From: a bacterium
Lineage (GTDB): Bacteria > Patescibacteriota > Minisyncoccia > Phycocordibacterales > UBA12088
Assembly: GCA_003252295.1 (NCBI GenBank)
Contig: QKEV01000003.1
Coordinates: 701-64,700, forward strand
DNA: 64,000 bases
Direction of reading: 5' to 3'
Part shown: in pieces, positions 1 through 57,070 of the stretch
How positions within the stretch are numbered: position 1 is the first letter of the stretch
How the letters are laid out: each line of letters begins with the position of its first letter
Notes under the pieces: model-generated
What the model saw: only the letters and a program-made list of their open reading frames with translations
What the model was told of the DNA's origin: nothing
Databases searched by the model: none
Position numbers and translations under genes: made by a program

Positions 1-3000
1 ACAAATGACACCCTCGAATTCATCAAGTGTAATGATGACTCCTGTTCGGATACTATCCAGCGTACGCTTGATGATGGTGGTGGAACAGACGTTGTTGGTG
101 GATACACCTCCATTGCCATCGGCACTGATGGCTTCCCGGTTGTGAGCTATCACGATAACACAAACGGCACTTTTGAATTCATCAAGTGTAACGACGTTTC
201 CTGTTCCGATGTTACCCAACGTACATTACATAGTACCGGAGGTGGGGGAGATGTTGGTGAGCACACCTCCATCACCACAGGTGTCGATGGTTTCCCGGTC
301 ATGATTTACCTTGATGTTAAAAATTATGAACTCGAGTTCATAAAGTGTAACGATGCTTCTTGTTCTGATGCTATACAACGTACGCTTGATGTTCCATATA
401 ATGTTAATTTGTACTATACCTCTATTGCCATCGGCACTGATGGCTTCCCAGTCATGAGTTACAGTAGCAATACAAGCCACTCCCTTGAATTTTTCAAATG
501 CAACTCCCTCGACTGTGCTCCAACAGGTTCATCGACCGCTCAACTCATAAACGACAACTCTGACCTCGACTACTACCTTGATAATGATGAGTACTCTGCC
601 ATAGCTTCGGATGATAGTACCTACGATGTACTCCGTGCAGGTACGAGTACCATGGGAGCAGTTGTGGCAAACAGCATCAACACGAACAGTACTGATCAGA
701 TACGGGTGACCTGGGATGGGCAGATAAGCGTTGCAACCACAACGAGCATACAGCTGTACAACTACAACAGTGACGGATGGGAAACACTCGATTCAAGTAC
801 GAGTCCTGCACCAGACACCGACTTTACCCTACAAGCAGTGCAGAGTACTTCTGTTGCTGACTACTACGATGTCTCTGATACGGTGACCGCACGTGTGATC
901 ATTGGTACCACCACGGACTACACCGAACTTAGTACCGACCAGCTCCTCATTGAAATGTCAGATGCATTCGTACGTGCCACCACTACCCAACGTGCCTACA
1001 TGTTCTACAACGACAACAACGGTGGTGTAGGGAGCAGTACTGTTCGGAGTGGAGCAAGTACGAGTACCGCCATCACAGGCGTCAAGAAAGGAGAACGTAT
1101 GGTGGTACGTCTCCAACTCGATACTGATGGGAATGATACCACTGCAGGTACGAGCACCCACACGTACCGCCTCCAATGGGAGAACTACACCGACGCACTG
1201 GGAACATGGAACGATCTCTCGACCACTACCGACATAGCATGGTCACTCTCGTATGACGGTGCACGATGGGGAAGAGGAGGACCGATACCACTTGCAACGA
1301 GTACCGGCTCCATAGACACCTGTAGCGGTAGTGCAACGTACGAAGGAGGACAGTTTGTGGCAGGCTTTGCTACAACAACCGCAGTAGCATTCCTCCCTGA
1401 TCAATGTAAAGACCTCGCCTACGCCATACACACCGGCAACGCTAAGCTCGGCAAGCAGTACCGACTCCGTGTCATTAACGGTGACGACTCAGAAGACCTT
1501 GCAACTGCAGGAGGAGCGTACAGTACCTACCCAACCTTCACGATCGAGAGTGCGACGAGTACACGGTACAGTAAGATGAGTAAGGGTGGGGAAGTGGCTA
1601 CTGTTCTTGATGATGGTGGGGAGGTGAATGATGTTGGTAAGCACGCCTCCATTGCCATTGGCACTGATGGTTTTCCGGTTATAACCTACCATGACAATAC
1701 TGACTATGATCTGGAATTTATCAAATGTAACGACCTTTCCTGCTCCGATACCACACAGCGCACGCTTGATGATGGTGGGGGTGTGAATGATGTTGGTGTG
1801 GCCACCTCTATTACTATTGGCACTGATGGTTTTCCGGTTATAACCTACCATGACAATACTGACCATGATCTGGAATTCATCAAGTGTAATGACGTTTCCT
1901 GCTCCGACACGACTCAGCGTACGCTTGATAGTGATAATTTATCTGGCCTGTACAACTCCATTGTCATCGGTACTGATGGATTCCCAGTGGTAAGCTATTT
2001 TGATGGACTCCTCAGCTTCATCAAATGTAACGACCTTTCCTGCTCCGATACCACCCAGCGTATCATTGATAATGGTGGTATGGTGAATACTGTTGGTGTG
2101 ACCACCTCTATTACTATCGGCACTGATGGTTTTCCGGTTATAACCTATTATGACGATACTGACTATGATCTGGAATTTATCAAGTGTAACGACGTTTTCT
2201 GCTCCGACACGACTCAGCGTACGCTTGATGATGGTGGTGGACAAATGGTTGGTTCCGCAACCTCCATTGCTATCGGCACTGATGGTTTTCCGGTTATAAC
2301 CTACCATAACAATACTGACTATGATCTGGAATTTATCAAGTGTAACGACGTTTCCTGCTCCGACACGACTCAGCGTACGCTTGATGATGGTGGTTACGCC
2401 ACCTCCATCACCATCGGCACTGACGGTTTTCTTGTGGTCAGTTACTATAATGATGCAACTGACCATGGTCTTGAATTCATCAAGTGTAATGACGTTTCCT
2501 GCTCCGACACGACTCAGCGTACGCTTGATAGTGATAATTTATCTGGCCTGTACAACTCCATTGTCATCGGTACTGATGGATTCCCAGTTATAAGTTACTA
2601 TAATGACACTGACAATAATCTTAATTTACTCAAATGCAACTCCCTCGACTGTGCCCCAACCGGTTCCTCGACCGCTCAACTCATAAACGACAACTCTGAC
2701 CTCGACTACTACCTCGACAACGACGAGTACAGTGCAGTAGGGAGTGACGATAGCACCTACGATGTAGTACGAGCAGGCACGAGTACCCTCGGAGCATTCG
2801 TCTTCAAGAAAAAGCACACGAACAGTACGGATAACATAGAAGCTACCTGGGACGGGCAGGTGAGTGACTCAGCTACCACCTCACTACAGATATACAACTA
2901 CACTTCAGAGAGTTGGGAGACACTTGAGTCAAGCTCTACGCCGGTAACCGATACCGACTTTACCCTAAACGGCACACAGTCCACTTCACTTGCTGACTAC

Positions 3001-3636
3001 TATGACCCGAGCAATGTCGCTACGCTACGCGTGCTCGTTGGTACCACCACCAACTACACCGAGCTCAGCAGTGACCTCGTGAGTGTCGTCTTTACCTCAG
3101 GATCATCCTTCACCTTTGCAACTGACATTTCCGGTTTCGGTGATATCAATGAAGGGGAGTACCGTGTTGCAACAGCAACGATCTCCATTAGTACTGAAAA
3201 CGAAGCAGGTTACAACGTGTCACTCATTTCTAATGATCGTACCATTACTGATACGTCTATGGACCTCACCACTGATGCTTCTGTAGGTATCATTGACCGT
3301 TTCGAGTGGTTGTCAGGAGCAGCAACAACCAGTGCGGGGAATGCCGTAAACATCGTACCTGGTAATGAGTTCTTGGCATTCCGTGTTATGACCGCAAGTG
3401 GCTCAGTGCCGTTTCTTGCACCAGACTGGTGGGGTACCGACGACACACTCTTCTCCATAAACAACCTCTGGGCAGGTATCGCGAGCTCAAGTGCTGGAAA
3501 CATTCAGATAGGGAACAGTAGTGTCGCTGCACCTTCCACAGAGTATGGCACCGTACAGTTCTACCTCGATGTACCATCGACACAGAAGACAGGATCGTAT
3601 ACTGGTGACATTACCTTTACGGTTATTGCGAATTAG
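1..3636 (+). CDS. giant tandem-repeat cell-surface protein (5' end lies upstream of window)
   Basis: Frame 1 is open from nt 1 and nt 1-141 already encode a repeat unit. At least ten 46-54 aa repeats share the consensus DGG..DVG..TSI.IGTDGFPVI.Y.DNTD.DLEFIKCND.SCSDTTQRTLD. Two copies of a ~160-aa module (nt 481-960 and 2617-3090) are present. The C-terminal ~170 aa is shared with the next ORF. Antisense ORFs in the track are repeat shadows. Confidence 0.75.
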   Translation, partial: TNDTLEFIKCNDDSCSDTIQRTLDDGGGTDVVGGYTSIAIGTDGFPVVSYHDNTNGTFEFIKCNDVSCSDVTQRTLHSTGGGGDVGEHTSITTGVDGFPVMIYLDVKNYELEFIKCNDASCSDAIQRTLDVPYNVNLYYTSIAIGTDGFPVMSYSSNTSHSLEFFKCNSLDCAPTGSSTAQLINDNSDLDYYLDNDEYSAIASDDSTYDVLRAGTSTMGAVVANSINTNSTDQIRVTWDGQISVATTTSIQLYNYNSDGWETLDSSTSPAPDTDFTLQAVQSTSVADYYDVSDTVTARVIIGTTTDYTELSTDQLLIEMSDAFVRATTTQRAYMFYNDNNGGVGSSTVRSGASTSTAITGVKKGERMVVRLQLDTDGNDTTAGTSTHTYRLQWENYTDALGTWNDLSTTTDIAWSLSYDGARWGRGGPIPLATSTGSIDTCSGSATYEGGQFVAGFATTTAVAFLPDQCKDLAYAIHTGNAKLGKQYRLRVINGDDSEDLATAGGAYSTYPTFTIESATSTRYSKMSKGGEVATVLDDGGEVNDVGKHASIAIGTDGFPVITYHDNTDYDLEFIKCNDLSCSDTTQRTLDDGGGVNDVGVATSITIGTDGFPVITYHDNTDHDLEFIKCNDVSCSDTTQRTLDSDNLSGLYNSIVIGTDGFPVVSYFDGLLSFIKCNDLSCSDTTQRIIDNGGMVNTVGVTTSITIGTDGFPVITYYDDTDYDLEFIKCNDVFCSDTTQRTLDDGGGQMVGSATSIAIGTDGFPVITYHNNTDYDLEFIKCNDVSCSDTTQRTLDDGGYATSITIGTDGFLVVSYYNDATDHGLEFIKCNDVSCSDTTQRTLDSDNLSGLYNSIVIGTDGFPVISYYNDTDNNLNLLKCNSLDCAPTGSSTAQLINDNSDLDYYLDNDEYSAVGSDDSTYDVVRAGTSTLGAFVFKKKHTNSTDNIEATWDGQVSDSATTSLQIYNYTSESWETLESSSTPVTDTDFTLNGTQSTSLADYYDPSNVATLRVLVGTTTNYTELSSDLVSVVFTSGSSFTFATDISGFGDINEGEYRVATATISISTENEAGYNVSLISNDRTITDTSMDLTTDASVGIIDRFEWLSGAATTSAGNAVNIVPGNEFLAFRVMTASGSVPFLAPDWWGTDDTLFSINNLWAGIASSSAGNIQIGNSSVAAPSTEYGTVQFYLDVPSTQKTGSYTGDITFTVIAN

Positions 3637-3788: not shown

Positions 3789-4484
3789 ATGCAGACACAA
3801 ATAATAAAATTCTCCAAGTTGCTTGAAAATGAAGTACAACTTGCAGGAGTATCTTTTTTGATTGCTTCTCTTATATTTGTCATGTCTTTTAGTTTTATTG
3901 CTTTTGGACAAGACTCATCAGGAGAAACACTTACCGTAACTGTACTAGAAGCTATGACCTTCACAACAGATGTGAGTGGTTTTGGTGATCTTACTCCAGG
4001 TACACCAAAATATGCAACCACGACAACTAATGTAGTTACAAATTCTGGTTCTGGTTTCAATCTTACATTATCAGGTGATGATCAGGGTACTACTGATACG
4101 GTAATGGATCTTACCACTGATGATACTGTTGGTATCACTGACCAGGAAGAGTGGGTTGCTGGAGCAGCAACAACTACAGCAGGAAATGCAGTGCTTGTTG
4201 GAGCACTTGATAACTCAGGAGATGTGCTTGCGTTTCGTATGATGACCGCATCCGGTACGGCAGAGGTCATTTCTACTAGCTGGTGGGGTGCTGATGATAC
4301 AGCTGGTAATGCACTCTGGGCAGGTATTGCTAGCTCAACGGTTGAAAGACAAATAGGAAACAGCTCTGTGTACTCATCTTCTGCAGCGGTAAACACTGTT
4401 CAGTACTACCTCGATGTACCAGCTTCACAGCAAACTGGTTCATACGATGGTGGTGTTACGTACACGGCAACAGCAAATATATAG
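3789..4484 (+). CDS. small secreted protein sharing the C-terminal domain of the giant repeat protein
   Basis: N-terminal hydrophobic signal/anchor (VSFLIASLIFVMSFSFIAFG). Residues ~55-231 align with the last ~175 aa of ORF 1..3636, sharing DVSGFGD, MDLTTD, AGAATT.AGNAV, LAFRMMTASG, WWG.DD, LWAGIASS, QIGNSSV and QYYLDVP..Q.TGSY. Confidence 0.7.
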   Translation: MQTQIIKFSKLLENEVQLAGVSFLIASLIFVMSFSFIAFGQDSSGETLTVTVLEAMTFTTDVSGFGDLTPGTPKYATTTTNVVTNSGSGFNLTLSGDDQGTTDTVMDLTTDDTVGITDQEEWVAGAATTTAGNAVLVGALDNSGDVLAFRMMTASGTAEVISTSWWGADDTAGNALWAGIASSTVERQIGNSSVYSSSAAVNTVQYYLDVPASQQTGSYDGGVTYTATANI

Positions 4485-4592: not shown

Positions 4593-5555
4593 TTGAAAAA
4601 AATGGATCAATCACGCATAACATTATTGAAAGCATTGAAACAAAAACTGCAAACCCTGTTTGCAGTTTTTGCGTGCCTCATGCTCGCTGGTTCATTTGCA
4701 ACACCAGTGCATGCTGCAGTTGGTGTAAAAATACAGCCAATCAAGGTTTCGACAACAATAGATAAGGGGGCAGAATCTGTTGGATACATCACACTTACTA
4801 ACGAGAGTGATCAGCCGGAGGGTATCATAGTTGAAACTGCGGTTGAGGACTTTGTTCCACTTGAGGGTGGTTCAAATATTAACTTTGTCTCTAGAACTGA
4901 GGGACTTACCACAGCTGCTGATTGGATAACCCTTGATGTTCCTGAAACATTTGAACTTGCTCCCGGAGAACAGAAAAAGGTAAAGTACACCATACGTGCT
5001 CCGGAAGATGCAGAGCCAGGAAGTCACTTTAGTGTCGTGTTCTTTAAGGCATTAAAGAAGGATGATGAAGGGCAATTGAAGGTGGGAACACGAGTTGGTT
5101 CACTATTCTTTATTACGGTACCAGGAAACTATGAGCAGAAGGGTGAGATAGAAAGCTTTACTGCACCAGAATTTATACAGCGAGGTCCAGTTCCATTCAC
5201 CATACATTTCAAAAATACCGGTACCGTGCACTTTGAACCAAAAGGTACCATTGTGATAAAGAATATGTTTGGTAAGCAGGTTGCTGAGGTCCCTGTTGAG
5301 GGGCAGGTAGTGCTTCCTACCGGAGCCCGAGATCTTAATGCACAATGGAGTCCTTCAGGACTCATTGCAGGGAAGTATACAGCATCACTCTCTATAACTG
5401 ATGGTGCTGGTGAGGTGCTTACCGCACAGGATGTCACCTTTATTGCCTTTCCTATTTGGTATGCGGTTATCTTCTTCCTGATCTTTATCTTTATCTACTT
5501 GTTGCTTCGCTTCTTCCGAAAGCATGTGAACATTTCTATCTCGGTTGGTAAGTAA
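4593..5555 (+). CDS. secreted beta-rich protein with C-terminal TM anchor (DUF916/CscA-like architecture, tentative)
   Basis: Signal peptide ending AVHA, a ~260-aa ectodomain and a C-terminal TM (FPIWYAVIFFLIFIFIYLLL) with a basic tail. The architecture resembles WxL-interacting DUF916 proteins. The family assignment is by pattern only. Confidence 0.55.
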   Translation: MKKMDQSRITLLKALKQKLQTLFAVFACLMLAGSFATPVHAAVGVKIQPIKVSTTIDKGAESVGYITLTNESDQPEGIIVETAVEDFVPLEGGSNINFVSRTEGLTTAADWITLDVPETFELAPGEQKKVKYTIRAPEDAEPGSHFSVVFFKALKKDDEGQLKVGTRVGSLFFITVPGNYEQKGEIESFTAPEFIQRGPVPFTIHFKNTGTVHFEPKGTIVIKNMFGKQVAEVPVEGQVVLPTGARDLNAQWSPSGLIAGKYTASLSITDGAGEVLTAQDVTFIAFPIWYAVIFFLIFIFIYLLLRFFRKHVNISISVGK

Positions 5556-5568
5556 TCAGTAAAACACT

Positions 5569-6696
5569 GTGTCTGATAACACACGAACAGTTTCAAAATG
5601 GAAGTTTTTTCCAGCATTTTTGTTGGTCATGTGCTGTTGGTTCTACACTGTGCATGCTCAGACGTTGCAGGAAAGTTCTGATGAGATGCTCATCGTAACC
5701 ATACTGGGAGACACGGCATGTAGTGATGGGGTAGATAATGATGGTGACACTTTCATTGATTTTCCGAATGACCCAGGGTGTGGTTCATATACTGATGACG
5801 ATGAGAATGATGCTCCGATACCACAGTGTAGTGATGGGATAGATAATGATTCTGATGGTCTTATTGATTACCCAAATGATACTGGGTGTGATGATGCAAA
5901 TGATGATAATGAGTATGTGTACTCACCCCCACCTTCAGGGGGAAGTGGTGGAAGCGGGGGGAGTTCCCCAGACAAGACTGCAGTGCGGTTTAGAGGATTA
6001 ACATTTCCTGAAGCGGAGCTCTCTCTTTTGAAGAGTGGTCAGGTGATTGAGACTGATACAGCAAACTCGCTTGGTGAGTTTGATTTGCGCTTAAGTGACC
6101 TTGCTGAAGGGCAGTACAACTTTGTGATTTTTGGTATAGATTCTGAGGAATTGCGCTCTGAAACGAGCGCATTCAATGTTTCTATTGAGGAAGATGTAAC
6201 CACGTCTGTGACTGGTATTTACATGCCACCAACCATACGCCTTGATAAAATACAGGTTAAAAATGGAAACATACTTACCGTTGATGGATACGCTATGCCA
6301 TATGCTGAAGTCTATCTATATGTTGATGGGGATATAGACACGGTTGGTGTTGCAACATCGAGTGCTGCTGGAAAATGGCTGTATGAGTTAAATACTGGCA
6401 GTATTGGATATGGTGACCATACAATACGTGCACAAGCTGTGAAAGGTTCGTTTGAAAGCATGCTTTCAAATTCACTCTCATTCAAGATTGGTCTGAGTGA
6501 TATATTCCAAACGGTAACAGATTCATGTGGATCAGTTGCTGACGTAAACTATGACTGCCGAGTAAACTTGATAGATTTTTCTATTGTGGCTTTTTGGTAC
6601 AAGAAGGATGGTGCGCCATCAAATGTTGATATCAATAATGACGGGGTGGTGGATATAAAGGACTTTAGTATTATGGCGTATCATTGGACGGGGTAA
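5569..6696 (+). CDS. secreted protein with Cys-framed Asp-rich Ca-binding-like repeats and C-terminal dockerin type I domain
   Basis: Signal peptide present. Two copies of CSDG.DND.D..ID.PNDPGC. A Gly/Ser linker and an Ig-like middle region follow. The C-terminus carries a duplicated dockerin motif: DVNYDCRVNLIDFSIV and DINNDGVVDIKDFSIM, matching D.N.DG.V...D...I. Confidence 0.7.
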   Translation: MSDNTRTVSKWKFFPAFLLVMCCWFYTVHAQTLQESSDEMLIVTILGDTACSDGVDNDGDTFIDFPNDPGCGSYTDDDENDAPIPQCSDGIDNDSDGLIDYPNDTGCDDANDDNEYVYSPPPSGGSGGSGGSSPDKTAVRFRGLTFPEAELSLLKSGQVIETDTANSLGEFDLRLSDLAEGQYNFVIFGIDSEELRSETSAFNVSIEEDVTTSVTGIYMPPTIRLDKIQVKNGNILTVDGYAMPYAEVYLYVDGDIDTVGVATSSAAGKWLYELNTGSIGYGDHTIRAQAVKGSFESMLSNSLSFKIGLSDIFQTVTDSCGSVADVNYDCRVNLIDFSIVAFWYKKDGAPSNVDINNDGVVDIKDFSIMAYHWTG

Positions 6697-6706
6697 TAGG
6701 ATTTGT

Positions 6707-7621
6707 ATGTATAGAGTTCTATTTTTACAACTAGCTATCATCCATACATTACTGTTTTGTATATGCACGACTCCGCTCTATGCAGCTACGTACTACTTTG
6801 ATCCAGTGCATAATGAGGTAGGTGAAGGACAGGTCAATGAGGTTGCTGTACTCGTGAATACAAATGGTGAATATATTAATGCGTTTGAGGGTGCGGTAGT
6901 GATTCCTGATACTGTTTCAGTGGTAGATGTGAAGACAAATGACTCTGTTGTTGACCTTTGGCTCAGTGCCCCGGCGTTAACTGACGGTCGTATTACATTT
7001 TCCGGTATCGTACCGGGTGGTTTTGATGGTATTCGTTCAGCGTATGGTGATGAACGCAAATCTGGCATTTTGTTGCGTATTGTATACAAGGGTGAACATG
7101 TTGGATCTGAATCATTTATGTTTGAAGACATGAAAGCATACCTGCATGATGGTAAAGCAACTGAAGCTGAAGTTGACCTTGTCCCTGCTGTAGTTGATGT
7201 GGTGAGAGGGGGAATAAAAAGAGAAGAAACAGAAAAAAAAGATACCGTAAAACCTGAAGTATTTGAGCCATATATTGTCCAAGACAATGCACTTGCCGAT
7301 AGTGCTTACGTTGTTGTATTCCACACAAGCGATAGAGGTAGTGGTGTTGCTTACTATGAGGTGTCCGAGACTTCAACAGGAGAGAAAAAGTGGGTACGTG
7401 CAAATTCACCATTTGTACTCAAGTATCAAACTTGCTCAAATGATGTGTACGTGAAGGCCGTTGACTATGCAGGCAATGAACGTGTTGTACAAGCGGTTTG
7501 TGGGGAGGATGGTAGAATCGTTCAAGCATTTTCAGTACTGCCAAAATGGTTCTGGTATGTAGCAGCTCTACTATTTGTTTTGCTACTATTTGTGTATATT
7601 CGTCGTTCTCGTACTGGCTAG
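6707..7621 (+). CDS. membrane-anchored cohesin-like domain protein
   Basis: Signal peptide. The N-terminal domain (VNEVAVLVNTNGEYINAFEGAVVIPDTVSVVDV...ITFSGIV) resembles a cohesin fold and is paralogous to the N-terminal domain of the next ORF. A Y_Y_Y/Ig-like module (VYVKAVDYAGNE) and a C-terminal TM (WFWYVAALLFVLLLFVYI) follow. Confidence 0.55.
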   Translation: MYRVLFLQLAIIHTLLFCICTTPLYAATYYFDPVHNEVGEGQVNEVAVLVNTNGEYINAFEGAVVIPDTVSVVDVKTNDSVVDLWLSAPALTDGRITFSGIVPGGFDGIRSAYGDERKSGILLRIVYKGEHVGSESFMFEDMKAYLHDGKATEAEVDLVPAVVDVVRGGIKREETEKKDTVKPEVFEPYIVQDNALADSAYVVVFHTSDRGSGVAYYEVSETSTGEKKWVRANSPFVLKYQTCSNDVYVKAVDYAGNERVVQAVCGEDGRIVQAFSVLPKWFWYVAALLFVLLLFVYIRRSRTG

Positions 7622-7642
7622 TTAGGGTACACTGTAAGTACT

Positions 7643-9388
7643 ATGAGGTTATCTCGTGTTCTTTGGGCGTTTCTCTTTGTGTTACTGTTTGGGTTTGGAA
7701 CTGTTGCAGATGCTGCAACAATGTTTCCTTCACCCACTTCTGGAGAAAAAACAGTGGGGGCAGTGTTTTCTTTAAAGGTGTACGTTGAAAGCTCGTCACA
7801 AGCGATGAATGCAGCTGGTGCAACGCTGTCTTTTCCTACTGACATTCTTGAGGTTGTGTCGGTGAGTAGAGAAGATTCTATTATAAATCTATGGATACAA
7901 GAACCGACATTTAGTAATACATATGGAACGGTAAAGTTTGAAGGAATCGTTTTTGATCCTGGATTTAAGGGTGCTAGTGGGCAGGTAATCACGGTTCATT
8001 TTCGAGCGAAGAAAATCGGGGTGGCTCCTATTACACTCGATTCCGGGACAGTGCTTGCTAATGATGGTATGGCAACAGAAATCCTCACTGGTACGAAGAA
8101 AGCATCATACTCAATCGTTGCTCCAAGTGCTGTTGAGGTGGCACCATCGCCAGTGGTAGTGGATCCGGTGACAACACAGGTGAACCTCCCAGCACCGGTT
8201 ATTGTCTCAGATACACATCCTGACCAAGATGCTTGGTACAGTAACGGTAACCCTCATTTTTCATGGAAGAACGATAAAGGGGTTACAGCAGTTCGTACAC
8301 TTATAGACAGGGATTCTAACTCTGTTCCAACAGTGGTGTACGATCCTCCTGTAGAGGAGAAGCAAGTGCAAGATCTTGAAGATGGTGTTTGGTACTTCCA
8401 TGTACAAAGTAAGGATGAGAATGGTTGGGGTGGAATTGCACACTATGCGGTACATATAGATACAGAAAAACCACATGATCTCACTATAACCGAAATTGAA
8501 AAGATCGACACAACTACACCAACTGCTGGGTTTACTTTGAATGCTCAAGATGAGGTTTCTGGTATAGATTACTACGAGATTGAAGTAGGTGGTGAGACAG
8601 TTACTTGGAAGCCGGGAAGAGAAGCATTCATAACTTCCGTACTTGAACCGGGAGAATACACGCTTAATGTAAAAGTATTTGATCAAGCAGGAAATGTTAC
8701 TGGTGGTTGGGCAAAGTTCACTATTGAAGGAATTCCAACACCTACAGTTGATGGTACAGTGACAGAGATTACCGCAGGGGAATCCTTTGAGATACGCGGG
8801 AAAGTCACCCAAGGTACTCAGGTAGTGTATGCATACATTACTGATAGATTTGGTGAAGTGTACGAGTTCTCTACTTCTGATATAGCTCAAGATGGATCTT
8901 TTGTGCTCATGGTACAGGGTACACTTTCGCCAGGTGAGTACGTTGTGACACTGGTGGCTGAAGATGGGCAAGGTGCAAGAAGTAGAGAGAGTGGTAAGTT
9001 ACCTTTAACAGTACTCATCCCAGGTTTGTTTGGTCTGACAGTAATGGAGGTGTTGTATATAATTTGCGCTCTCATACTTCTCGTGTTGGTACTCTTTACC
9101 CTACTTATTTTCCGTCATAGGAAAACAGAGCATCTCATCAAGCATCTTGGAAAGGGTGTAGACGAGATGGATAAAAGTGTCGTAAAGGCAGCGGCTCTCC
9201 TCAAGAGTGATATTTCAAAACAGGTTGATGACATAAAAAACAAACGGTCAAGCGGTAAACTGACAAAAACAGAACGAGATCTTGTTGTTACCATGCAGCA
9301 GGACATGGCTGATCTTGAAAGGTATCTTAAGAAACAGATTACTGAAGTAGAAGAATTGCTTGGCAAAGAAGAGGAAAAAGAGGGCTAG
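7643..9388 (+). CDS. membrane-anchored cohesin-like domain protein with Ig-like modules and cytoplasmic coiled-coil tail
   Basis: Signal peptide. A cohesin-like N-terminal domain (VGAVFSLKVYVESS...ATLSFPTDILEVVSVS...VKFEGIV). Ig/Y_Y_Y-like modules (GVWYFHVQSKDENGW). TM LFGLTVMEVLYIICALILLVLVLFTLLIF, then a ~90-aa charged coiled-coil tail. Confidence 0.55.
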   Translation: MRLSRVLWAFLFVLLFGFGTVADAATMFPSPTSGEKTVGAVFSLKVYVESSSQAMNAAGATLSFPTDILEVVSVSREDSIINLWIQEPTFSNTYGTVKFEGIVFDPGFKGASGQVITVHFRAKKIGVAPITLDSGTVLANDGMATEILTGTKKASYSIVAPSAVEVAPSPVVVDPVTTQVNLPAPVIVSDTHPDQDAWYSNGNPHFSWKNDKGVTAVRTLIDRDSNSVPTVVYDPPVEEKQVQDLEDGVWYFHVQSKDENGWGGIAHYAVHIDTEKPHDLTITEIEKIDTTTPTAGFTLNAQDEVSGIDYYEIEVGGETVTWKPGREAFITSVLEPGEYTLNVKVFDQAGNVTGGWAKFTIEGIPTPTVDGTVTEITAGESFEIRGKVTQGTQVVYAYITDRFGEVYEFSTSDIAQDGSFVLMVQGTLSPGEYVVTLVAEDGQGARSRESGKLPLTVLIPGLFGLTVMEVLYIICALILLVLVLFTLLIFRHRKTEHLIKHLGKGVDEMDKSVVKAAALLKSDISKQVDDIKNKRSSGKLTKTERDLVVTMQQDMADLERYLKKQITEVEELLGKEEEKEG

Positions 9389-9480: not shown

Positions 9481-10182
9481 ATGAGAGAAGAACATGTTAT
9501 ATCGTACACATCCATACTCAAGGCATTTATTGTTTTTGTTGTTGGAGTTTCAGTTCTAGTTGCAGTTCAACTTTTTTCTGAGGAGAGTGAGGAAGATACC
9601 GGTACAGGTACACAAACTCAACAGGAGGAAACTGTTGCAAAAGAGACCGGGACACAAAAAACTAAAACACAAGGGAATGTAGATTGGAAAACATACGTTA
9701 GTGACGGCAAGATATTTCAAATACAGTATCCTGGAGAGTACTACTATGTGCGAGAGAAAACGAATGGAGCAGAAATGGTAAATATTTTTGAAGAAGATGA
9801 GTACAACAGGGCATATCGTGAGGCGCAGCAGACGTGTGTGGAGCGAGGTGAATCAGATTGTTCGGTGTACTACTCTCGTACAAGTTCAATGCTGATCGTC
9901 ATAAAGGATGATGGTAGAACAATCAAAGAGTATGCAAACATTTATGGTGCAACAAACAAAACCTGTACTGTAGGAGGGAAAAAAGGTTTATGCACCGTTG
10001 CATCTGGTTATACTGACCCAATACCGTATTTTTTGTATGAAGAGAATGGGAAAGTAGTGATATTTTCTAATGTAGGGACAGCCCAGAAACCAAGCGTTCC
10101 TCTGCCAACAGTTGATCCTCGAAGTAGTTTACTTAAAGACGAACGGGAACAAATAGTAGGTACGTTCCGTTTTTTGAAGTAA
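9481..10182 (+). CDS. hypothetical N-terminally anchored extracytoplasmic protein
   Basis: N-terminal TM (ILKAFIVFVVGVSVLVAVQLF), an acidic/Thr linker and a 6-Cys globular region. Last gene of the surface cluster, followed by a terminator. Confidence 0.45.
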   Translation: MREEHVISYTSILKAFIVFVVGVSVLVAVQLFSEESEEDTGTGTQTQQEETVAKETGTQKTKTQGNVDWKTYVSDGKIFQIQYPGEYYYVREKTNGAEMVNIFEEDEYNRAYREAQQTCVERGESDCSVYYSRTSSMLIVIKDDGRTIKEYANIYGATNKTCTVGGKKGLCTVASGYTDPIPYFLYEENGKVVIFSNVGTAQKPSVPLPTVDPRSSLLKDEREQIVGTFRFLK

Positions 10183-10206: not shown

Positions 10207-10240
10207 ACAAAAAAGCTGGAGAAATCTCCAGCTTTTTTAA
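10207..10240 (+). terminator. bidirectional intrinsic terminator
   Basis: aaaaaaGCTGGAGAaatcTCTCCAGCtttttt: a perfect 10-bp stem flanked by an A-run and a T-run. Confidence 0.7.
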
Positions 10241-38011: not shown

Positions 38012-38064
38012 AAGAAACACTAATACCTGCAATGCTATCCGCATTACAGGCGTAGTGTATCTAG

Positions 38065-38137
38065 TGCGCGCACCAGGACTCGAACCTGGGACCACAGAGG
38101 TATAAGCTCTGCGCTCTACCAACTGAGCTATACGCGC
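38065..38137 (-). tRNA. tRNA with anticodon TAT (reads AUA; tRNA-Ile(UAU)-type)
   Basis: Manual fold of the reverse complement gives a 73-nt cloverleaf. Acceptor GCGCGTA/TGCGCGC, D-arm GCTC-AGTTGGTA-GAGC, anticodon arm CAGAG-CTTATAC-CTCTG, T-arm CCAGG-TTCGAGT-CCTGG, discriminator A. No encoded CCA. Confidence 0.75.
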
Positions 38138-46941: not shown

Positions 46942-47004
46942 GTAAAAAGTCTATCTTTACTCAGGTGGTATGCGCTATACTAAAGTACACACAAGAAACA
47001 GGAT

Positions 47005-48159
47005 ATGGATCTATCGTTTTTGGATCAGGCGAAAAAAATGTTCGAAAAAAAGGTTCTCTCACGCGGTGTTGAGAGTGTTTTGGGTATCGACATTGGTTCA
47101 TCTGCAATAAAATTAGTGCAGTTAAAAAGTAGTCAAGGAACAGCTACGCTTGAGACGTACGGTGAGATATCACTTGGTCCCTATGCAGAGAAGGAGGTGG
47201 GACAGGCAACCAACTTGCCACCTGAAAAGCTTGCAGAAGCTCTGAAAACACTCATTACCGAGGCCAATGTTACCACTGATGTTTGTGGTGTATCAGTTCC
47301 TTTTGCCTCAAGTTTAGTGAAACTCATTGAGGTCCCTCCACTTGATCTGAAAAAACTTCAGACAGTAGTACCAATTGAAGCAAGAAAGTACATACCAGTA
47401 CCTATTTCTGAAGTGCAGCTCGATTACTTTATTATTCCTGAGACCGAACAGAAGCTATTTCTTGGTGCGAAAAATATCAATGATGCGGAAGGTCAAGAGC
47501 TCAAGAATCGAATGGTGCTCATTGTGGCAATGCATAATGATATTTTGAGGAGGTATACAGAAACCATTAAGGTAGCAGGGTTAAATGCCGAGTTCTTTGA
47601 GATCGAGGTATTTTCAAATATACGCTCTACTGTTGCTCATAGTCTAGCACCAGTCGCAATAATTGACCTTGGTGCAACAACAAGCAAACTATACCTTGTC
47701 GAACTTGGTATCGTGCTTGCATCCCATGTCATCCCTGTTGGTTCTCAAGACATTACAAAGTCACTTGCAAAGAGTACACATATGACCATGGCAAAGGCAG
47801 AGGAGATCAAACGGCAGGCAGGTATACTTTCAGGGGTTGAGAATGGGGATGCTGCGCGCGTGTCACATGCAGCAACGCTTACCATGGAGCAGATCTTTGC
47901 TGAGGCGCGTAGGGTGCTACTTGGTTTTCAACGTAAGTACAACAAAGTCATCACTAAGGTGATCCTGACTGGAGGTGGTGCAACCCTCAAAGGGCTTCCT
48001 GAGTTTGCACGGCAGCAACTTGAGCTTGAGATCGAGGTGGCAAATCCTTTCCTGCATGTTCAGGCACCTTCCTTTTTACAGGACACATTGGAACAAGCGG
48101 GACCTGACTTTGCTGTGTCTGTTGGTCTTGCGCTCCGTGTTTTACATGATAGTAGGTAA
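47005..48159 (+). CDS. pilM: type IV pilus assembly protein PilM (actin-like ATPase fold)
   Basis: VLGIDIGSSAIKLVQL..., an FtsA/PilM-like fold, and its position ahead of pilNOP. Confidence 0.85.
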   Translation: MDLSFLDQAKKMFEKKVLSRGVESVLGIDIGSSAIKLVQLKSSQGTATLETYGEISLGPYAEKEVGQATNLPPEKLAEALKTLITEANVTTDVCGVSVPFASSLVKLIEVPPLDLKKLQTVVPIEARKYIPVPISEVQLDYFIIPETEQKLFLGAKNINDAEGQELKNRMVLIVAMHNDILRRYTETIKVAGLNAEFFEIEVFSNIRSTVAHSLAPVAIIDLGATTSKLYLVELGIVLASHVIPVGSQDITKSLAKSTHMTMAKAEEIKRQAGILSGVENGDAARVSHAATLTMEQIFAEARRVLLGFQRKYNKVITKVILTGGGATLKGLPEFARQQLELEIEVANPFLHVQAPSFLQDTLEQAGPDFAVSVGLALRVLHDSR

Positions 48160-48251
48160 TGTAGTGGATAAACCTTCCATGAAAATGGAGGTAGTGTGGG
48201 TATAATAGCAAGTGTGAGACTGTAGTAAGTTCATTAACGTACAACACTAGT

Positions 48252-49085
48252 ATGGATTCGAAATTTAATACTTCGTTCATTCCCAAAAAATCATTACAGG
48301 CGGATACTGGATCATCGTCTGGTGATAAGTACGTTAGCAGAAGAACTACTCACTATGGTCCAGGTTTTTTTCTCACCTTTCTCATTTTTGTAGCAAGTGT
48401 CGTTGCCTCTATAGGTGTTTTCGGCTACACCACTATTGTTAACAAGCAGATTGATGAGTACAAAAAAACACTCGATGAACAGCAAAACAAGTTTGATTCA
48501 GCTGTTGTGGATGAGTTGATACGTGCAGAAAGCAGGATAGAGAACGCAAAAGACCTAGTGGTAAACCATACCATATTGACTCAGTTGCTTAGTAAACTTG
48601 AAGCAATAACACTACGTAGAATTCAATACACCGAATTAACTTATGTAGATGAAACTGATGCACAACCGTTATTAACCCTCTTGGGTATTGCAGAGAGTTA
48701 TAAGAGTGTTGCGCAACAGACAACTGTATTTCGAAATGATAATCTGATCCATAATCCTATTATGGTGGAGCTTGAGAAGAGTAATGATACAGATGATGTC
48801 ACCTTTGCTCTCGAGGCAAGTGTTGATGAGAAACTCATTTCATTTTCTGCTACGCTTGCTGAGGATCGATTTGGCAGGAATGCTTTTGTGAATGGTGCCA
48901 ATACATCAACATCAGTCAACGCTAGTGGTGCTACAACGGTTAATACTGGTAATACAACAGTTACGACTGGTAATGGTAATACTTCTGTTACAACTGACAA
49001 TGCTACTGTTGACGTTACTGGTAATGGTGCAAACGTTATTGTTAACGATGGAGCAACAGAAACAGTTGTTAATACTTCAAATTAG
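48252..49085 (+). CDS. pilN: PilN-like bitopic protein with Thr/Asn/Gly-rich repetitive C-terminal tail
   Basis: Single TM (FFLTFLIFVASVVASIGVFGY), a coiled coil, and the TTVNTGNTTVTTGNGNTSVTT tail. Confidence 0.6.
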   Translation: MDSKFNTSFIPKKSLQADTGSSSGDKYVSRRTTHYGPGFFLTFLIFVASVVASIGVFGYTTIVNKQIDEYKKTLDEQQNKFDSAVVDELIRAESRIENAKDLVVNHTILTQLLSKLEAITLRRIQYTELTYVDETDAQPLLTLLGIAESYKSVAQQTTVFRNDNLIHNPIMVELEKSNDTDDVTFALEASVDEKLISFSATLAEDRFGRNAFVNGANTSTSVNASGATTVNTGNTTVTTGNGNTSVTTDNATVDVTGNGANVIVNDGATETVVNTSN

Positions 49086-49087
49086 AT

Positions 49088-49684
49088 ATGTCTAGAGTTT
49101 TAGTTCCAGTTTTACTCATAATTGTTTCTGCAGGACTTCTTTTTTCTTATATAAAACCTGCGTACGAAAACTTACAGGAGTTTAAGTTCCAAGAAGCAGA
49201 ACTCGTGGAAGCTATCGAAGATGCTGAAAGGTTGATGGAGGGGTATCAGGGTCTCTTGCGCGACAAGAGTAGTATCTCTGAAGAGAATCAACGTGATTTG
49301 GAAAAGATACTCCCTGATGCTATTGACGTGGTGCAACTCATTGTTGATCTTGATGTACTGACACAAGAAAATAAACTTGAAATCAAATCTTTTGAAATAC
49401 CATACATTGACAGAGAAGCAGTAATGAGTGGTGCACAGCTTTCGAATAAGACAAGGAGTAACCAGAAGCAGGGAAATGGTCCAGTTGGTAGTGCTGTTCT
49501 TACTGTTGAGGTAACAGGAGACTATGATAACTTCAAGGCGTTTCTTCTTGATATAGAGAGAAGTGTTGCTTTGGTTGATGCCACACTGCTCGATATACAG
49601 GTTCCTAACGAGTTTAAACCTGGAACAGATAAAGATATTACCTACACTGTTGGTTTACAAGCGTATTGGTTAAAAGCTGAATAA
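49088..49684 (+). CDS. pilO: PilO-like bitopic protein
   Basis: N-terminal TM, a coiled coil and the pilO position. Confidence 0.6.
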   Translation: MSRVLVPVLLIIVSAGLLFSYIKPAYENLQEFKFQEAELVEAIEDAERLMEGYQGLLRDKSSISEENQRDLEKILPDAIDVVQLIVDLDVLTQENKLEIKSFEIPYIDREAVMSGAQLSNKTRSNQKQGNGPVGSAVLTVEVTGDYDNFKAFLLDIERSVALVDATLLDIQVPNEFKPGTDKDITYTVGLQAYWLKAE

Positions 49685-49689
49685 AATAT

Positions 49690-49989
49690 ATGTCTGGAAA
49701 CATCAAACATATCTTTGCACTCATTATACTCATTCTTGTAGCAGGGGGTTTCTACATGCTTGCTCAGAGTGACACGATGTTTAAAGGAAGTCAGCAACGT
49801 TCAGAGGAGATTGCAGCGGAAACTGCACGATTACAGCAAGAAGTTATTGCTCCGCTACGACGACTTACTGGAGTGACAATAGATACAAATTTTTTCTCGA
49901 GCAAAGAGTATACTGCACTTACCTACAAGGGGGAAAGTTTACCTGAACCGGTTGTACAGAGAAACAATCCATTCGAATCGTTACGATAG
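49690..49989 (+). CDS. PilP-like small anchored protein
   Basis: N-terminal TM and a C-terminal RNNPFESL motif. Occupies the pilP position. Confidence 0.4.
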   Translation: MSGNIKHIFALIILILVAGGFYMLAQSDTMFKGSQQRSEEIAAETARLQQEVIAPLRRLTGVTIDTNFFSSKEYTALTYKGESLPEPVVQRNNPFESLR

Positions 49990-50039
49990 TTAAGGGTTGT
50001 TACTCTTTGTTTGTTTATTAAGGTTAGAAGTATTGCTCT

Positions 50040-51941
50040 GTGTTTAATTTGCTACCATTACTTGAGAGAAAAGGAATCATCACCGAGAGTGATGTTATGG
50101 CTATCTCAGATGAGCTGCAAAGCGGTGAAAAGACACTTGAGGATCTTTTGAGAGACCGTGGTATCTCTGATGAGGACATACTTGCAACAAAAGGTGAGCA
50201 CTGGGATATTCCTGTTCGTTCCTTGCAGGATGATATTATTCCCTATGAGACACTGCAGTACATATCTGAAGAGTCTGCTAAACACTACCATGTACTTCCT
50301 CTTGCACTCATAGATAATGTTCTTGAGGTTGGTATTGTCGACCCTGATAATATTGATGCTCTTGATGCACTTAACTTCATTTCAACAAAACAAGGTGTTC
50401 CGTTTAAGGTGTTTCTCATAAGCGAACGTGATTACAAGAGGGGGTTAGAGATGTATAGTGGACTCTCGAGTCAGGTGAGCAGGGCACTTACTAAACTTGA
50501 AGAAGATGAGTCAGCAAAAGAAACTGGTTCAGTAGCGCGTGTAGGTCAAGAAAGGGAAACACAGAATTTGGATGATCTTGAGGAAACAGTGCAAGCAGCT
50601 GAGAATAAGGGAGGTAATACAGATATTCGTGAGGAGGCTCCAGTAACAAAAATTGTTGCCACCATTTTAAGGAGTGCAATTGATGCACGTACTTCTGATA
50701 TTCATATAGAACCAGAGTATGAGGAAACGAGGGTGCGTTTTCGAGTTGACGGTGTACTCAACAAGTCACTGGTGCTGCCTGCAAAAGTGCAGAGTGCTGT
50801 CATAGCACGTGTAAAGATCCTTGCTGGTATTAAACTTGATGAGAAACGTAAACCTCAAGATGGACGTTTTTCTGCAACAATAAACGGTAGACGGGTAGAT
50901 TTTCGTGTTTCTACCATGCCTGTGTACTACGGTGAAAAGGCAGTGCTTCGTATTCTTGATAGTGAACGAAGTAGTGTGACCCTTGAAGATCTCGGTATGA
51001 GTGAGGGACAACTGGCATACGTGAAGCGTGCTGTTGCTGCACCGTATGGCATGATCCTCATAACAGGTCCAACAGGTTCTGGTAAATCAACAACACTCTA
51101 TGCAATGCTCAATGAGGTAGATAGAGACAAGAAAAATGTACTCTCGCTTGAAGATCCTGTTGAGTACAACATTAAAGGGGTGAGTCAGTCACAAATGCGA
51201 CCTGAGATTGGATACACCTTTGCGGCCGGTATACGAAGTGTTTTGCGACAGGATCCAGACATCATCATGGTTGGTGAGATTCGTGATAAAGAAACAGCTC
51301 AGCTTGCTGTGCAGGCAGCTCTTACTGGACACTTAGTACTCTCAACACTGCATACCAATAATGCTGCAGGCGCAGTGCCACGTTTGGTAGATATGGGTGT
51401 TGATCCGTATCTTCTCGCTCCAACACTAGACCTTATTGTTGCTCAACGTTTGGTGCGTCGTATTTGTCCTGATTCAGGCAAGAAGATTCCGATTGAAGGT
51501 CAGATAAGGAGGATGATAGATAATGATTTTGCTGATCTTCCAGAAAAATATAAAAAAGAACTTCTCCCAGACGCAAAGGAGGTTTTGGCAATTCAACCAT
51601 CGAGTAACTGTCCAACAGGAACACGCGGACGGCTTGGTGTGTATGAGATGTTAGAAATTAACGAAGAGATACGGGCAGCCATACTTGATGGTGGTGAAGA
51701 GGAGAAGGTGTTTGGTATTGCACGTAAAAATGGAATGATAACACTCAAGGAGGATACTATTGTTAAATCTATGAAAAAACTCATACCGTGGGAGGAAGTT
51801 GCTCAGATCGGAGGACTTATGGATATTGAAGCAGAGTTTGGCATTGGTGAAGAAAAGGAAGAGGTTGAGGAGAAACAGCAAGACGAGGATGAAGCTAAAG
51901 GTAAGGATAACCTTGAGACAAATGAGCTAGACTTAGTATAA
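50040..51941 (+). CDS. pilB: type IV pilus assembly ATPase PilB (GspE family) with acidic C-terminal extension
   Basis: N-terminal GSPII_E_N domain. Walker A GPTGSGKSTTL, Asp box, His box HLVLSTLHTN and tetracysteine CPDSG...CPTG. Confidence 0.92.
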   Translation: MFNLLPLLERKGIITESDVMAISDELQSGEKTLEDLLRDRGISDEDILATKGEHWDIPVRSLQDDIIPYETLQYISEESAKHYHVLPLALIDNVLEVGIVDPDNIDALDALNFISTKQGVPFKVFLISERDYKRGLEMYSGLSSQVSRALTKLEEDESAKETGSVARVGQERETQNLDDLEETVQAAENKGGNTDIREEAPVTKIVATILRSAIDARTSDIHIEPEYEETRVRFRVDGVLNKSLVLPAKVQSAVIARVKILAGIKLDEKRKPQDGRFSATINGRRVDFRVSTMPVYYGEKAVLRILDSERSSVTLEDLGMSEGQLAYVKRAVAAPYGMILITGPTGSGKSTTLYAMLNEVDRDKKNVLSLEDPVEYNIKGVSQSQMRPEIGYTFAAGIRSVLRQDPDIIMVGEIRDKETAQLAVQAALTGHLVLSTLHTNNAAGAVPRLVDMGVDPYLLAPTLDLIVAQRLVRRICPDSGKKIPIEGQIRRMIDNDFADLPEKYKKELLPDAKEVLAIQPSSNCPTGTRGRLGVYEMLEINEEIRAAILDGGEEEKVFGIARKNGMITLKEDTIVKSMKKLIPWEEVAQIGGLMDIEAEFGIGEEKEEVEEKQQDEDEAKGKDNLETNELDLV

Positions 51942-51949
51942 TAGGGTAT

Positions 51950-52348: not shown

Positions 52349-52403
52349 GTAGTGGAGTGGGTGGGAATGTTCCTGCTCTTTATATAAAAAAGTACCTTTT
52401 AGT

Positions 52404-53486: not shown

Positions 53487-53490
53487 AACT

Positions 53491-54699: not shown

Positions 54700-54721
54700 T
54701 TTGAAGAAATTGCTTGGATAA

Positions 54722-54805
54722 TTTCTGCGTTACTGCAATCATTCAAACATTCACTGTATAAAAAATACAGCTCATGTTTTCATTTCTTTGCGCCTTGAAC
54801 TTACC
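54722..54805 (+). repeat. intergenic repeat family, copy 5 (diverged) between pilC and major pilin gene
   Basis: TTCTGCGTTACTGCAATCATTCAAACATTCACTGTATaaaaaATACAGCTCATGTTTTCATTTCTTTGCGCCTTGAACTT. The hairpin carries compensatory C-G to U-A changes. Confidence 0.6.
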
Positions 54806-57065: not shown

Positions 57066-57070
57066 ACAAC

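Follow-up and report, generated by a model that had tools for sequence, protein, structure and literature searches.

Attachment to a host is a central open question for Patescibacteria (CPR), a group thought to hold a large share of bacterial diversity, and almost no CPR surface protein has an assigned role. We analysed a 64,000-nucleotide stretch of DNA (the window) from such a bacterium, which is tiny and probably host-dependent. Here, a gene for a secreted protein that ends in a dockerin stands directly ahead of two genes for membrane-anchored proteins with cohesin-like domains. What does this gene set do on a CPR cell? The original prediction was that of a self-contained cohesin-dockerin pair outside any cellulolytic context, plausibly used to dock a giant repeat protein or other ligands to the cell surface. 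All the features it described were found in the translations where it had placed them. We conclude that the region is probably the core of a conserved CPR cell-surface module, which would act as a calcium-dependent tether for the secreted dockerin protein and form part of an adhesion apparatus.

Domain identities, folds and topology signals

Six genes follow one another 5' to 3', encoding a large protein, a small protein, a WxLIP-like protein, the dockerin protein, and a short and a long cohesin protein. These, and one further gene, are as follows.

1–3636, + strand: large surface protein, open at the 5' end of the window, at least 1,211 aa
Large protein, repeats: ~53-aa repeats (GTDGFPVITYHDNTDYDLEFIKCND...), tandem repeat period 159 nt, 5.1 copies
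Large protein, ~nt 3096–3633: C-terminal domain of ~180 aa, common to ORF 3789–4484
3789–4484, + strand: small secreted or anchored protein, 231 aa
4593–5555, + strand: WxLIP-like protein, 320 aa, with a signal peptide, two Ig-like domains and a C-terminal transmembrane helix
5569–6696, + strand: secreted dockerin protein, 375 aa, from Pfam Dockerin_1 and conservation
Dockerin protein, aa 1–30: signal peptide (signal-like segment)
Dockerin protein, aa 51–107 (nt 5719–5889): two acidic Cys-framed loops
Dockerin protein, between the acidic loops and the Ig-like region: Gly/Ser linker
Dockerin protein, aa 127–311 (nt 5947–6501): tandem Ig-like region
Dockerin protein, aa 317–375 (nt 6517–6693): dockerin, at the extreme C-terminus
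6707–7621, + strand: short membrane-anchored cohesin protein, 304 aa, with a signal peptide
Short cohesin protein, aa 27–171 (nt 6785–7219): cohesin-like domain
Short cohesin protein, ~aa 196–262: small beta domain (OmpL47-type match, sub-threshold)
Short cohesin protein, aa 277–295: transmembrane helix, then a tail of ~9 residues (...RRSRTG)
7643–9388, + strand: long membrane-anchored cohesin protein, 581 aa, with a signal peptide
Long cohesin protein, aa 25–165 (nt 7715–8137): cohesin
Long cohesin protein, ~aa 200–457: Ig-like modules (Big_13/PKD)
Long cohesin protein, aa 472–490: transmembrane helix
Long cohesin protein, nt 9113–9385: cytoplasmic helical tail, ~91 aa
9481–10182, + strand: 233-aa protein with an N-terminal membrane segment, the final gene of the strand-run ahead of a hairpin

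When the whole of ORF 5569–6696 was scanned against Pfam, the dockerin predicted at its end was recovered as Dockerin_1 (PF00404; 23.4 bits, cutoff 22.9). The module alone gave 31.8 bits (E 1.6e-7), and PF00404 is also present in the precomputed annotation of the orthologs in loci L002, L003 and L004. The C-terminal sequence reads DVNYDCRVNLIDFSIV...DINNDGVVDIKDFSIM...WTG. Its two halves, DVNYDCRVNLID and DINNDGVVDIKD, are tandem segments of ~22 residues, each a calcium loop followed by a helix. Among 68 distinct dockerin orthologs, the calcium-loop positions (1, 3, 5, 9 and 12, scored for acidic or amide residues) were 94–100% conserved, and the helix residues were nearly invariant. The module is highly conserved and internally symmetric, with the consensus DLNnDgRVNLVDFSIAAYWY / DLNGDGKVDLVDFSIMAFYW, and lies at the protein end in 69 of 71 dockerin proteins.

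The hydrophobic-segment scan found no internal transmembrane segment in ORF 5569–6696, and its Ig-like region is homologous to aa 324–457 of ORF 7643–9388. The acidic loops (CSDGVDNDGDTFIDFPNDPGC, aa 51–71; CSDGIDNDSDGLIDYPNDTGC, aa 87–107) had been likened to calcium-binding repeats. The loops are certainly there, but the two stretches matched NCBIfam acid_disulf_rpt only below threshold (26.7 bits, cutoff 41). Since just 9 of the 71 dockerin proteins have such loops, they are not a conserved cargo-binding part.

The N-terminal domains (~150 aa) of the two cohesin proteins are paralogous (29% identity, E 1e-12), as had been predicted. The full-length Pfam scan of ORF 7643–9388 missed the cohesin. 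With the domain alone, PF00963 scored 28.0 bits (cutoff 24.1) over model positions 9–126 of 139, and 50 of 100 members of the domain family matched PF00963 at E ≤ 0.01. The predicted structure of this domain is a nine-stranded beta-sandwich of the cohesin fold, and the structures that match it best are type I cohesins of cellulosomes. The strands of the predicted binding sheet were somewhat more conserved than the opposite sheet; the bias is modest, and strand numbering was set by strand order in the model only. The resemblance to cohesin was thus borne out directly for ORF 7643–9388, but the domain of ORF 6707–7621, scanned alone, gave no match to the Pfam cohesin family (PF00963). It was assigned as a putative cohesin through its paralog, through homologs that carry PF00963 (such as P0005 and P0161), and through its family profile, which matched Ruminococcus flavefaciens cohesins (PDB 5aoz/5m2o, E 3.5e-4).

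Both cohesin proteins have an N-terminal signal-like segment and, in agreement with the predicted anchors, a C-terminal transmembrane helix followed by basic residues. The modules between had been called Ig/Y_Y_Y-like. In ORF 7643–9388 the Ig-like part held, with Big_13 (34.6 bits) and PKD (24.2 bits) both above cutoff, but Y_Y_Y stayed below it. Profile scans (Pfam and NCBIfam) of the locus proteins detected neither catalytic nor carbohydrate-binding domains, in keeping with a self-contained, non-cellulolytic set.

Gene order and conservation

In the window, the dockerin gene, the short cohesin gene and the long cohesin gene follow one another on the + strand with gaps of 11–22 nt. When CPR loci with enough upstream sequence (57) were compared, a dockerin-ending gene was found just upstream of the cohesin genes in 56, and in nearly all a short cohesin and a long one, each membrane-anchored, were present together. 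The original prediction had proposed a search for further dockerins. Our dockerin and cohesin scans covered gene neighbourhoods: the window has exactly one dockerin and two cohesins, and the related loci, 1.05 Mb in total, have 71 dockerins, each of them directly upstream of cohesin genes and none unpaired. One locus (L020) holds a second dockerin-cohesin pair. Chance is excluded as the cause, because dozens of independent genomes carry these dockerin and cohesin genes too.

The short and long cohesins also occur as fusion proteins (n = 28), in which the first domain is short-type in 26 and the second is long-type in all; locus L044, for instance, has an in-frame 866-aa open reading frame that fuses them. 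Since 26 of the 28 keep the hydrophobic segment between both cohesins, some of these fusions could be gene-calling read-throughs.

The cohesin domain family comprises 6,161 clusters at 50% identity. Named records with the cassette belong to Paceibacteria/Parcubacteria-type CPR lineages, and one of the loci (L033) is that of Candidatus Microsyncoccus archaeolyticus PMX.50, an organism described from methanogenic cultures enriched in Patescibacteria (PMC10936435). No description of the cassette was found in the searchable literature, and the original prediction did not mention its wide conservation across CPR bacteria.

Upstream of the cassette, in 40 of 54 loci the gene directly ahead of the dockerin gene encodes a WxLIP-like homolog, and small/large protein pairs with a common C-terminal domain occur in 34 loci. 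In the window, the C-terminus of the large protein is paralogous to ORF 3789–4484 (E 2.6e-49), which beyond its hydrophobic segment (aa 21–39) consists solely of that domain. ORF 3789–4484 itself had no Pfam match. Against NCBIfam CPR_Pam_pilin_C (NF058581) it scored 16.5 bits over the full model length, and its homolog in locus L037 scored 19.4 bits, likewise below the cutoff of 55. Other loci have large and small proteins of a commoner type, to which the window's large and small proteins showed no significant profile similarity; of 16 small proteins of this commoner type, 2 matched CPR_Pam_pilin_C (E ~0.007). The large protein matched CV39L-lectin weakly (E 8e-6, far below cutoff).

ORF 4593–5555 (transmembrane segment aa 283–301) resembles WxLIP at the family level only. 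Its family profile (A6) matched Enterococcus faecium EfmWxLIP1 (PDB 9i25/9i1y, E 9e-4, 215 columns) and 13 of 26 family members matched Pfam PF06030 WxLIP_PGBD (best E 4.6e-5); the protein itself gave no PF06030 match at E < 0.1.

At the other end of the strand-run, ORF 9481–10182 (hydrophobic segment aa 11–29) is followed by a terminator-like hairpin at 10208–10239. An iterative search found no homolog of it among 85 related loci, and hence it probably lies outside the core module.

Candidate functions of the cassette

In the proposed module, the dockerin protein would be exported by Sec. Each cohesin protein would sit in the cytoplasmic membrane by its C-terminal helix and show its N-terminal cohesin outside on an Ig-like stalk. 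One or both cohesins would capture the dockerin non-covalently and calcium-dependently, presumably on the canonical 8-3-6-5 sheet. Such capture would keep the Ig-like dockerin protein on a cell without the outer membrane needed for usher-type anchoring, and the long cohesin protein, through its ~90-residue cytoplasmic tail, could connect the complex with the cell interior. From the gene order we infer that the cohesins bind the dockerin of ORF 5569–6696; calcium dependence, stoichiometry and the adhesion role are proposed along with it.

Many related uncultured lineages carry these three genes in almost unchanged order, so the cassette is likely a general means of building a surface attachment complex in CPR, and not a plant-fibre-degrading machine. 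The most likely product of the whole operon is an apparatus for host-cell contact, adhesive or fibre-like, because the module is co-encoded with the WxLIP-like protein and the large and small proteins, the large one with lectin-like repeats.

The original prediction, that the pair docks cargo such as the giant repeat protein on the cell surface, is one that we regard as unlikely. The gene for the giant protein does lie just upstream in the same strand-run, a large surface protein is also encoded ahead of the cassette in most related loci, and the acidic loops or the Ig-like body of the dockerin protein could in principle bind cargo. However, the profile scan found no dockerin in the part of the giant protein that lies within the window, and the acidic loops are rare, as described above. 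Moreover, the giant protein shares its C-terminal domain with ORF 3789–4484, and the adjacent WxLIP-like protein is of the known partner type for such a domain (PMC10599100). By this analogy, the WxLIP-like protein would be the more likely partner of that domain than the cohesin-dockerin pair. Together with the missing dockerin, this makes direct docking of the giant protein unlikely. An indirect contact, by way of the dockerin protein's body, is conceivable.

Slightly less probable still is that the proteins do not bind one another. The membrane proteins would then be adhesins themselves, and the dockerin a calcium-stabilised module for another ligand, for instance a molecule on the host surface. 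Outside cellulosomes, cohesin and dockerin modules are often without an identified partner, and a dockerin protein of Southlakia, SEML1_0315, is essential yet has no neighbouring cohesin gene. Without a functional link, however, the adjacency in 56 of 57 loci, the second pair in L020 and the lack of unpaired dockerins in 1.05 Mb are hard to explain, and the near-invariant helix residues of the dockerin fit a conserved partner in the same genome, not varied host ligands.

A miniature cellulosome, with the cohesins scaffolding dockerin-bearing polysaccharide-degrading enzymes, is highly improbable: the domain families are those of cellulosomes and the best structural matches are cellulosomal, but the locus proteins lack carbohydrate-binding domains as well as catalytic ones, glycoside hydrolases included, each cohesin protein (short-plus-long fusions aside) bears a single cohesin and no array, the sole dockerin protein in the locus is made of Ig-like domains, and a C-terminal membrane helix serves as the anchor in place of SLH domains or sortase.

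Relation to known surface systems

Cellulosomal type I pairs and anchoring scaffoldins (Clostridium thermocellum OlpA/OlpC, C. cellulolyticum; PDB 1ohz, 2vn5/2vn6, 3ul4, 4dh2) are among the closest known systems to the proposed tether. CAZyme-borne dockerins and a multi-cohesin scaffoldin with a carbohydrate-binding module, which define a cellulosome, are both missing from the locus. The CPR cassette differs further in that its single dockerin protein is encoded beside its presumed receptors, in tiny-genome hosts. Among non-cellulosomal modules, the Archaeoglobus fulgidus cohesin (2xdh) and the Clostridium perfringens toxin-complex cohesins (2vo8, 2jh2, 2w1n) are on enzymes or soluble proteins, whereas the CPR cohesins are on dedicated membrane-anchored Ig-like stalks in a fixed cassette.

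The WxL clusters of Firmicutes consist of a small WxL protein, a large WxL protein and WxLIP (DUF916-DUF3324-TM), and the WxLIP-type protein binds the C-terminal domain common to the small and large proteins (PMC10599100). The upstream half of the CPR locus is similar, with large and small proteins that have a common C-terminal domain, followed by a two-Ig membrane-helix protein. Unlike in WxL clusters, this common domain matches no Pfam family, WxL included, and WxL clusters are without cohesin or dockerin genes.

Pam pili of CPR, reported mainly in Saccharimonadia and Microgenomatia, comprise PamA/B pilins, the membrane-anchored PapD-like chaperones PamC/D and the anchor PamR, and are defined in part by polymerisation through donor-strand exchange, aided by such chaperones (bioRxiv 10.64898/2026.03.03.709456). 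Like the module proposed here, they are a CPR-specific surface system with all parts Sec-exported, with Ig-like helper proteins that have C-terminal membrane helices, and with subunits that have a common C-terminal Ig-like domain. In contrast, ORF 3789–4484 and its L037 homolog match CPR_Pam_pilin_C at 16–19 bits against the cutoff of 55, the cassette is found in Paceibacteria/Parcubacteria-type lineages, and the Pam paper mentions no cohesin or dockerin (bioRxiv 10.64898/2026.03.03.709456).

A more specific arrangement of the tether can be offered tentatively, and we would not rate it as likely. The short and long cohesins might form a two-socket membrane receptor that clamps both near-identical dockerin halves (1:1:1). 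This would be a base plate at which a Pam/WxL-like fibre of Paceibacteria-type CPR is anchored or ends, with the tail of the long cohesin coupling the fibre to the interior. If so, membrane anchoring would work in another way than through PamR, the proposed anchor of Pam pili. The cassette itself joins three topics that have been treated separately, namely non-cellulosomal cohesin-dockerin pairs, Firmicutes WxL clusters and Pam pili. It offers a concrete, testable protein-protein interaction whose three partners, a dockerin and two cohesins, are each a small soluble domain, and may supply a compact, naturally membrane-anchored pair for protein display.

Another dockerin-domain envelope protein of a CPR bacterium, SEML1_0315 of Southlakia epibionticum, is required for growth on the host by transposon sequencing (PMC10633639). 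Its likeness to ORF 5569–6696 is at the domain level, both being Ig-like surface proteins with a dockerin. SEML1_0315 (927 aa) stands alone among unrelated genes with no adjoining cohesin genes, whereas ORF 5569–6696 lies beside two.

Gene order around the dockerin gene

The + strand of the 64-kb window carries nearly all of its long ORFs, ribosomal-protein operons among them, and the homologs retrieved came from Patescibacteria (CPR) genomes. From position 1 to about 10,240 the run of + strand genes is uninterrupted, and consists of the following features:

Off the 5' end to 3636, + strand: large repeat protein (from translation)
3789-4484, + strand: 231-aa protein
4593-5555, + strand: 320-aa protein
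5569-6696, + strand: dockerin gene
6707-7621, + strand: short cohesin gene
7643-9388, + strand: long cohesin gene
9481-10182, + strand: 233-aa membrane protein
10208-10239: terminator-like hairpin, 14-bp stem with an A-run and a T-run on its flanks

Intergenic gaps across 4593-9388 are just 11-22 nt. Exact-sequence look-ups matched ORF 7643-9388 to a 5.7-kb contig only, and the dockerin protein to none. The hairpin at 10208-10239 could stop transcription in both directions, and is the probable end of the operon. The cumulative GC skew climbed steadily over the full 64 kb; this climb and the shared strand of the long ORFs are consistent with a single replication arm having a strong gene-strand bias. 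The sole tRNA detected in the 64 kb was a tRNA-Ile with the anticodon TAT (38064-38137, - strand). In most bacteria, AUA is decoded by a modified CAT anticodon instead.

Cohesin domains and a duplicated dockerin

The two genes that follow the dockerin gene were originally predicted to encode paralogous, cohesin-like N-terminal domains. The paralogy was borne out, a domain of ~150 residues being common to ORFs 6707-7621 and 7643-9388 (29% identity, E 1e-12). No cohesin was matched in the full-length proteins by Pfam or NCBIfam scan, Protein Data Bank searches with single sequences gave no relevant match and no cohesin, and a word-indexed search with the N-terminal domain of ORF 7643 found no homolog. 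Detection required that the proteins be split into domains before the Pfam scan. When the domain of ORF 7643 was scanned alone, it scored 28.0 bits against Pfam Cohesin (cutoff 24.1), and 50 of 100 relatives matched the same model. Among PDB structures, cohesins of Ruminococcus flavefaciens were matched by a family profile (E 3.5e-4). An exhaustive profile search for this domain yielded 6,161 clusters at 50% identity. The domain of ORF 6707 scanned alone, on the other hand, had no Pfam match, and may be called a cohesin by homology only.

With one and the same library, the cohesin of ORF 7643-9388 went unreported in the full-length scan and exceeded the cutoff for the N-terminal 152 residues. 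Precomputed PF00963 annotation was present for 1 of 13 homologs in one set and 1 of 8 in another; automated annotation probably under-calls this cohesin family.

Both cohesin proteins carry a signal-like segment at the N terminus and a transmembrane helix at the C terminus, followed by basic residues, in agreement with the membrane anchors predicted for them. Past this helix, the short protein has a tail of ~8 residues and the long one a helical tail of ~86-91 residues, the secondary structure of the latter being taken from a low-confidence model. The AlphaFold2 single-sequence model of full-length ORF 7643 had a pLDDT of 46 and was unusable. Of the Ig- or Y_Y_Y-like modules expected in ORF 7643-9388, Big_13 and PKD were above cutoff in the Pfam scan, but Y_Y_Y was not.

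The duplicated dockerin proposed for the end of ORF 5569-6696 was confirmed. Its C-terminal end has two EF-hand-like loops, each followed by a helix (DVNYDCRVNLIDFSIVAFWY... DINNDGVVDIKDFSIMAYHWTG). The entire ORF scored 23.4 bits against Pfam Dockerin_1 (cutoff 22.9), and the last 63 residues alone scored 31.8 bits (E 1.6e-7). In other genomes, 68 distinct orthologous modules showed 94-100% conservation at loop positions 1, 3, 5, 9, and 12, and the consensus was nearly identical between the two halves. The dockerin formed the end of the protein in 69 of 71 orthologs. On its N-terminal side lie a signal-like segment, a Gly/Ser linker, and a tandem Ig-like region that shares homology with the part of ORF 7643-9388 closest to the membrane. 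The two Cys-framed acidic loops described earlier are also present; they matched NCBIfam acid_disulf_rpt below cutoff, and occur in just 9 of the 71 orthologs.

Conservation of the cassette

Linkage of the dockerin, short cohesin, and long cohesin genes (hereafter, the cassette) was examined by profile searches in 80 loci obtained from a scan, with one genome per species. It proved tight and widespread. Gene contexts of homologs, inspected separately, had an identical order wherever upstream sequence existed. Among the 80 loci, 57 offered 2.3 kb or more of sequence ahead of the long cohesin gene; 56 of these have, just upstream of the cohesin genes, a gene whose product terminates in a dockerin. 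By automated count, a short cohesin gene (or a fusion) lay between the dockerin and long cohesin genes in 54 of the 57. Two of the others, L049 and L061, have both genes and were missed only because the locus breaks off within the long gene; in the third, L057, the short cohesin gene and the dockerin gene are both absent.

Across 1.05 Mb of loci, a six-frame search detected 71 dockerins, every one on the same strand as the cassette; 70 were the cassette gene, and the remaining one (in L020) itself precedes a cohesin gene. Exactly one dockerin was present in the window. This is in keeping with the locus-specific pairing envisaged in the original prediction, no unpaired dockerin being seen in these cassette neighbourhoods. 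At 15620-18432 of L020, the exceptional gene encodes a second, different dockerin protein of 800 aa and has a cohesin gene directly after it; the main cassette of this genome lies ~5 kb upstream.

Two cohesin domains were found within one protein in 28 cases, the first domain being of the short type in 26 and the second of the long type in all 28. In 26 of the 28, a hydrophobic segment is still found between the two domains, so some of these fusions may be gene-calling read-throughs, although such segments would also fit an unchanged topology. In L044 the short-plus-long fusion reads as one unbroken 866-aa ORF under the standard code. Many third-party assemblies with a CPR-type cassette (L008, L011, L018-L020, L022, and others) are titled 'uncultured Gammaproteobacteria', 'Candidatus Saccharibacteria', 'Planctomycetia' or 'Deferribacteres'. 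Such titles look unreliable, and were therefore left out of the taxonomic distribution.

Upstream neighbours, known systems, and a putative surface assembly

In the 320-aa protein (4593-5555), two Ig-like domains are combined with a membrane helix at the C terminus. Over 215 columns, the profile of its family matched WxLIP1 of Enterococcus faecium (E 9e-4), and 13 of 26 family members matched Pfam WxLIP_PGBD (formerly DUF916). In 40 of 54 loci, a homolog immediately precedes the dockerin gene; the remaining loci mostly have a giant protein, a ~135-aa protein, and a longer dockerin protein. A cassette subtype with no detectable WxLIP-like gene was seen in L008, L019, L030, L068, L071, L078, and L082. 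Its giant protein exceeds 1,600 aa and is always cut off by the start of the locus; in most of these loci, the ~135-aa protein comes next, and then a dockerin protein of 430-450 aa (361 aa in L068).

The large repeat protein ends in a domain of which ORF 3789-4484 is a copy (E 2.6e-49), and this relation between a small and a large protein is seen in 34 loci. The large protein (1-3636) contains a 159-nt (53-aa) tandem repeat in 5.1 copies with 76% matches, and matched the CV39L lectin family weakly (E 8e-6, far below cutoff). A ~150-aa block (LINDNSDLDYYLDNDEYSA...) occurs twice, on either side of the repeat region. The domain shared by the large/small pair had no Pfam match, and spanned the whole NCBIfam CPR_Pam_pilin_C model with scores far below cutoff. 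When two profiles of the small upstream proteins (A7 and A8), covering the window type and the commoner type of other loci, were searched against the PDB, A7 had no match and the best match of A8 was not significant (E 1.9). Profile-profile comparison of the two by hhalign gave no significant similarity (E 0.059, probability 0.9%), so homology of the window's pair to the commoner type is not claimed; the layout alone is the same.

By identity and fold, both domain types belong to the cohesin and dockerin families. A cellulosome was rejected, since the cassette lacks enzymes, a carbohydrate-binding module, and an array of cohesins; this accords with the predicted non-cellulolytic context. Non-cellulosomal cohesin-dockerin modules are already known, and the non-cellulosomal cohesin structures of Archaeoglobus and C. 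perfringens were among the best matches. In Southlakia, a cultured CPR bacterium, a dockerin-domain envelope protein is essential; its gene stands alone, whereas the window dockerin adjoins cohesin genes. On this context, the Southlakia protein (SEML1_0315, 927 aa) was rejected as an ortholog of the cassette. No description of the cassette was found in the literature searched.

The upstream half of the cassette region, a small/large pair and then a WxLIP-like protein, has the layout of WxL clusters, in which a small and a large WxL protein precede WxLIP; insertion of a WxLIP strand into the WxL domain is predicted there (PMC10599100). The layout is also reminiscent of the recently solved Pam pili of a CPR bacterium, although the pilin match of the small domain is far below cutoff. 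Pam pilins have a truncated Ig-like C-terminal domain and polymerise by donor-strand exchange, helped by PapD-like chaperones with a C-terminal membrane helix; neither cohesin nor dockerin is mentioned in that paper (bioRxiv 10.64898/2026.03.03.709456). At the sequence level, the link of the upstream genes to either system is weak.

We infer cohesin-dockerin binding, with its calcium dependence and stoichiometry, and a role in adhesion. The dockerin protein would be exported and then, in a calcium-dependent manner, retained on the outside of the membrane by one of the anchored cohesins or by both. Together with the WxLIP-like protein and the large/small pair, it would belong to a larger assembly at the cell surface, to which the large member may contribute lectin-like repeats, going by the weak match. 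The strands expected in the dockerin-binding sheet were somewhat more conserved than the other sheet, which is no more than suggestive. Docking of the giant repeat protein itself by the pair, as originally proposed, was rejected since the giant protein has no dockerin. The cassette offers an interaction open to direct testing in a bacterial group that is very large and little understood.

A type IV pilus-like gene run was noted in the ORF listing at ~47000-60500 (+ strand). Two small proteins encoded there on the + strand have a typical pilin N terminus (56580-57065, ...RGFTLMELMTVIAIIGILAAVV; 57071-57634, ...KGFTLIELVVVLGILVGLGG), and the run looks like a surface-filament system separate from the cassette in the same window.
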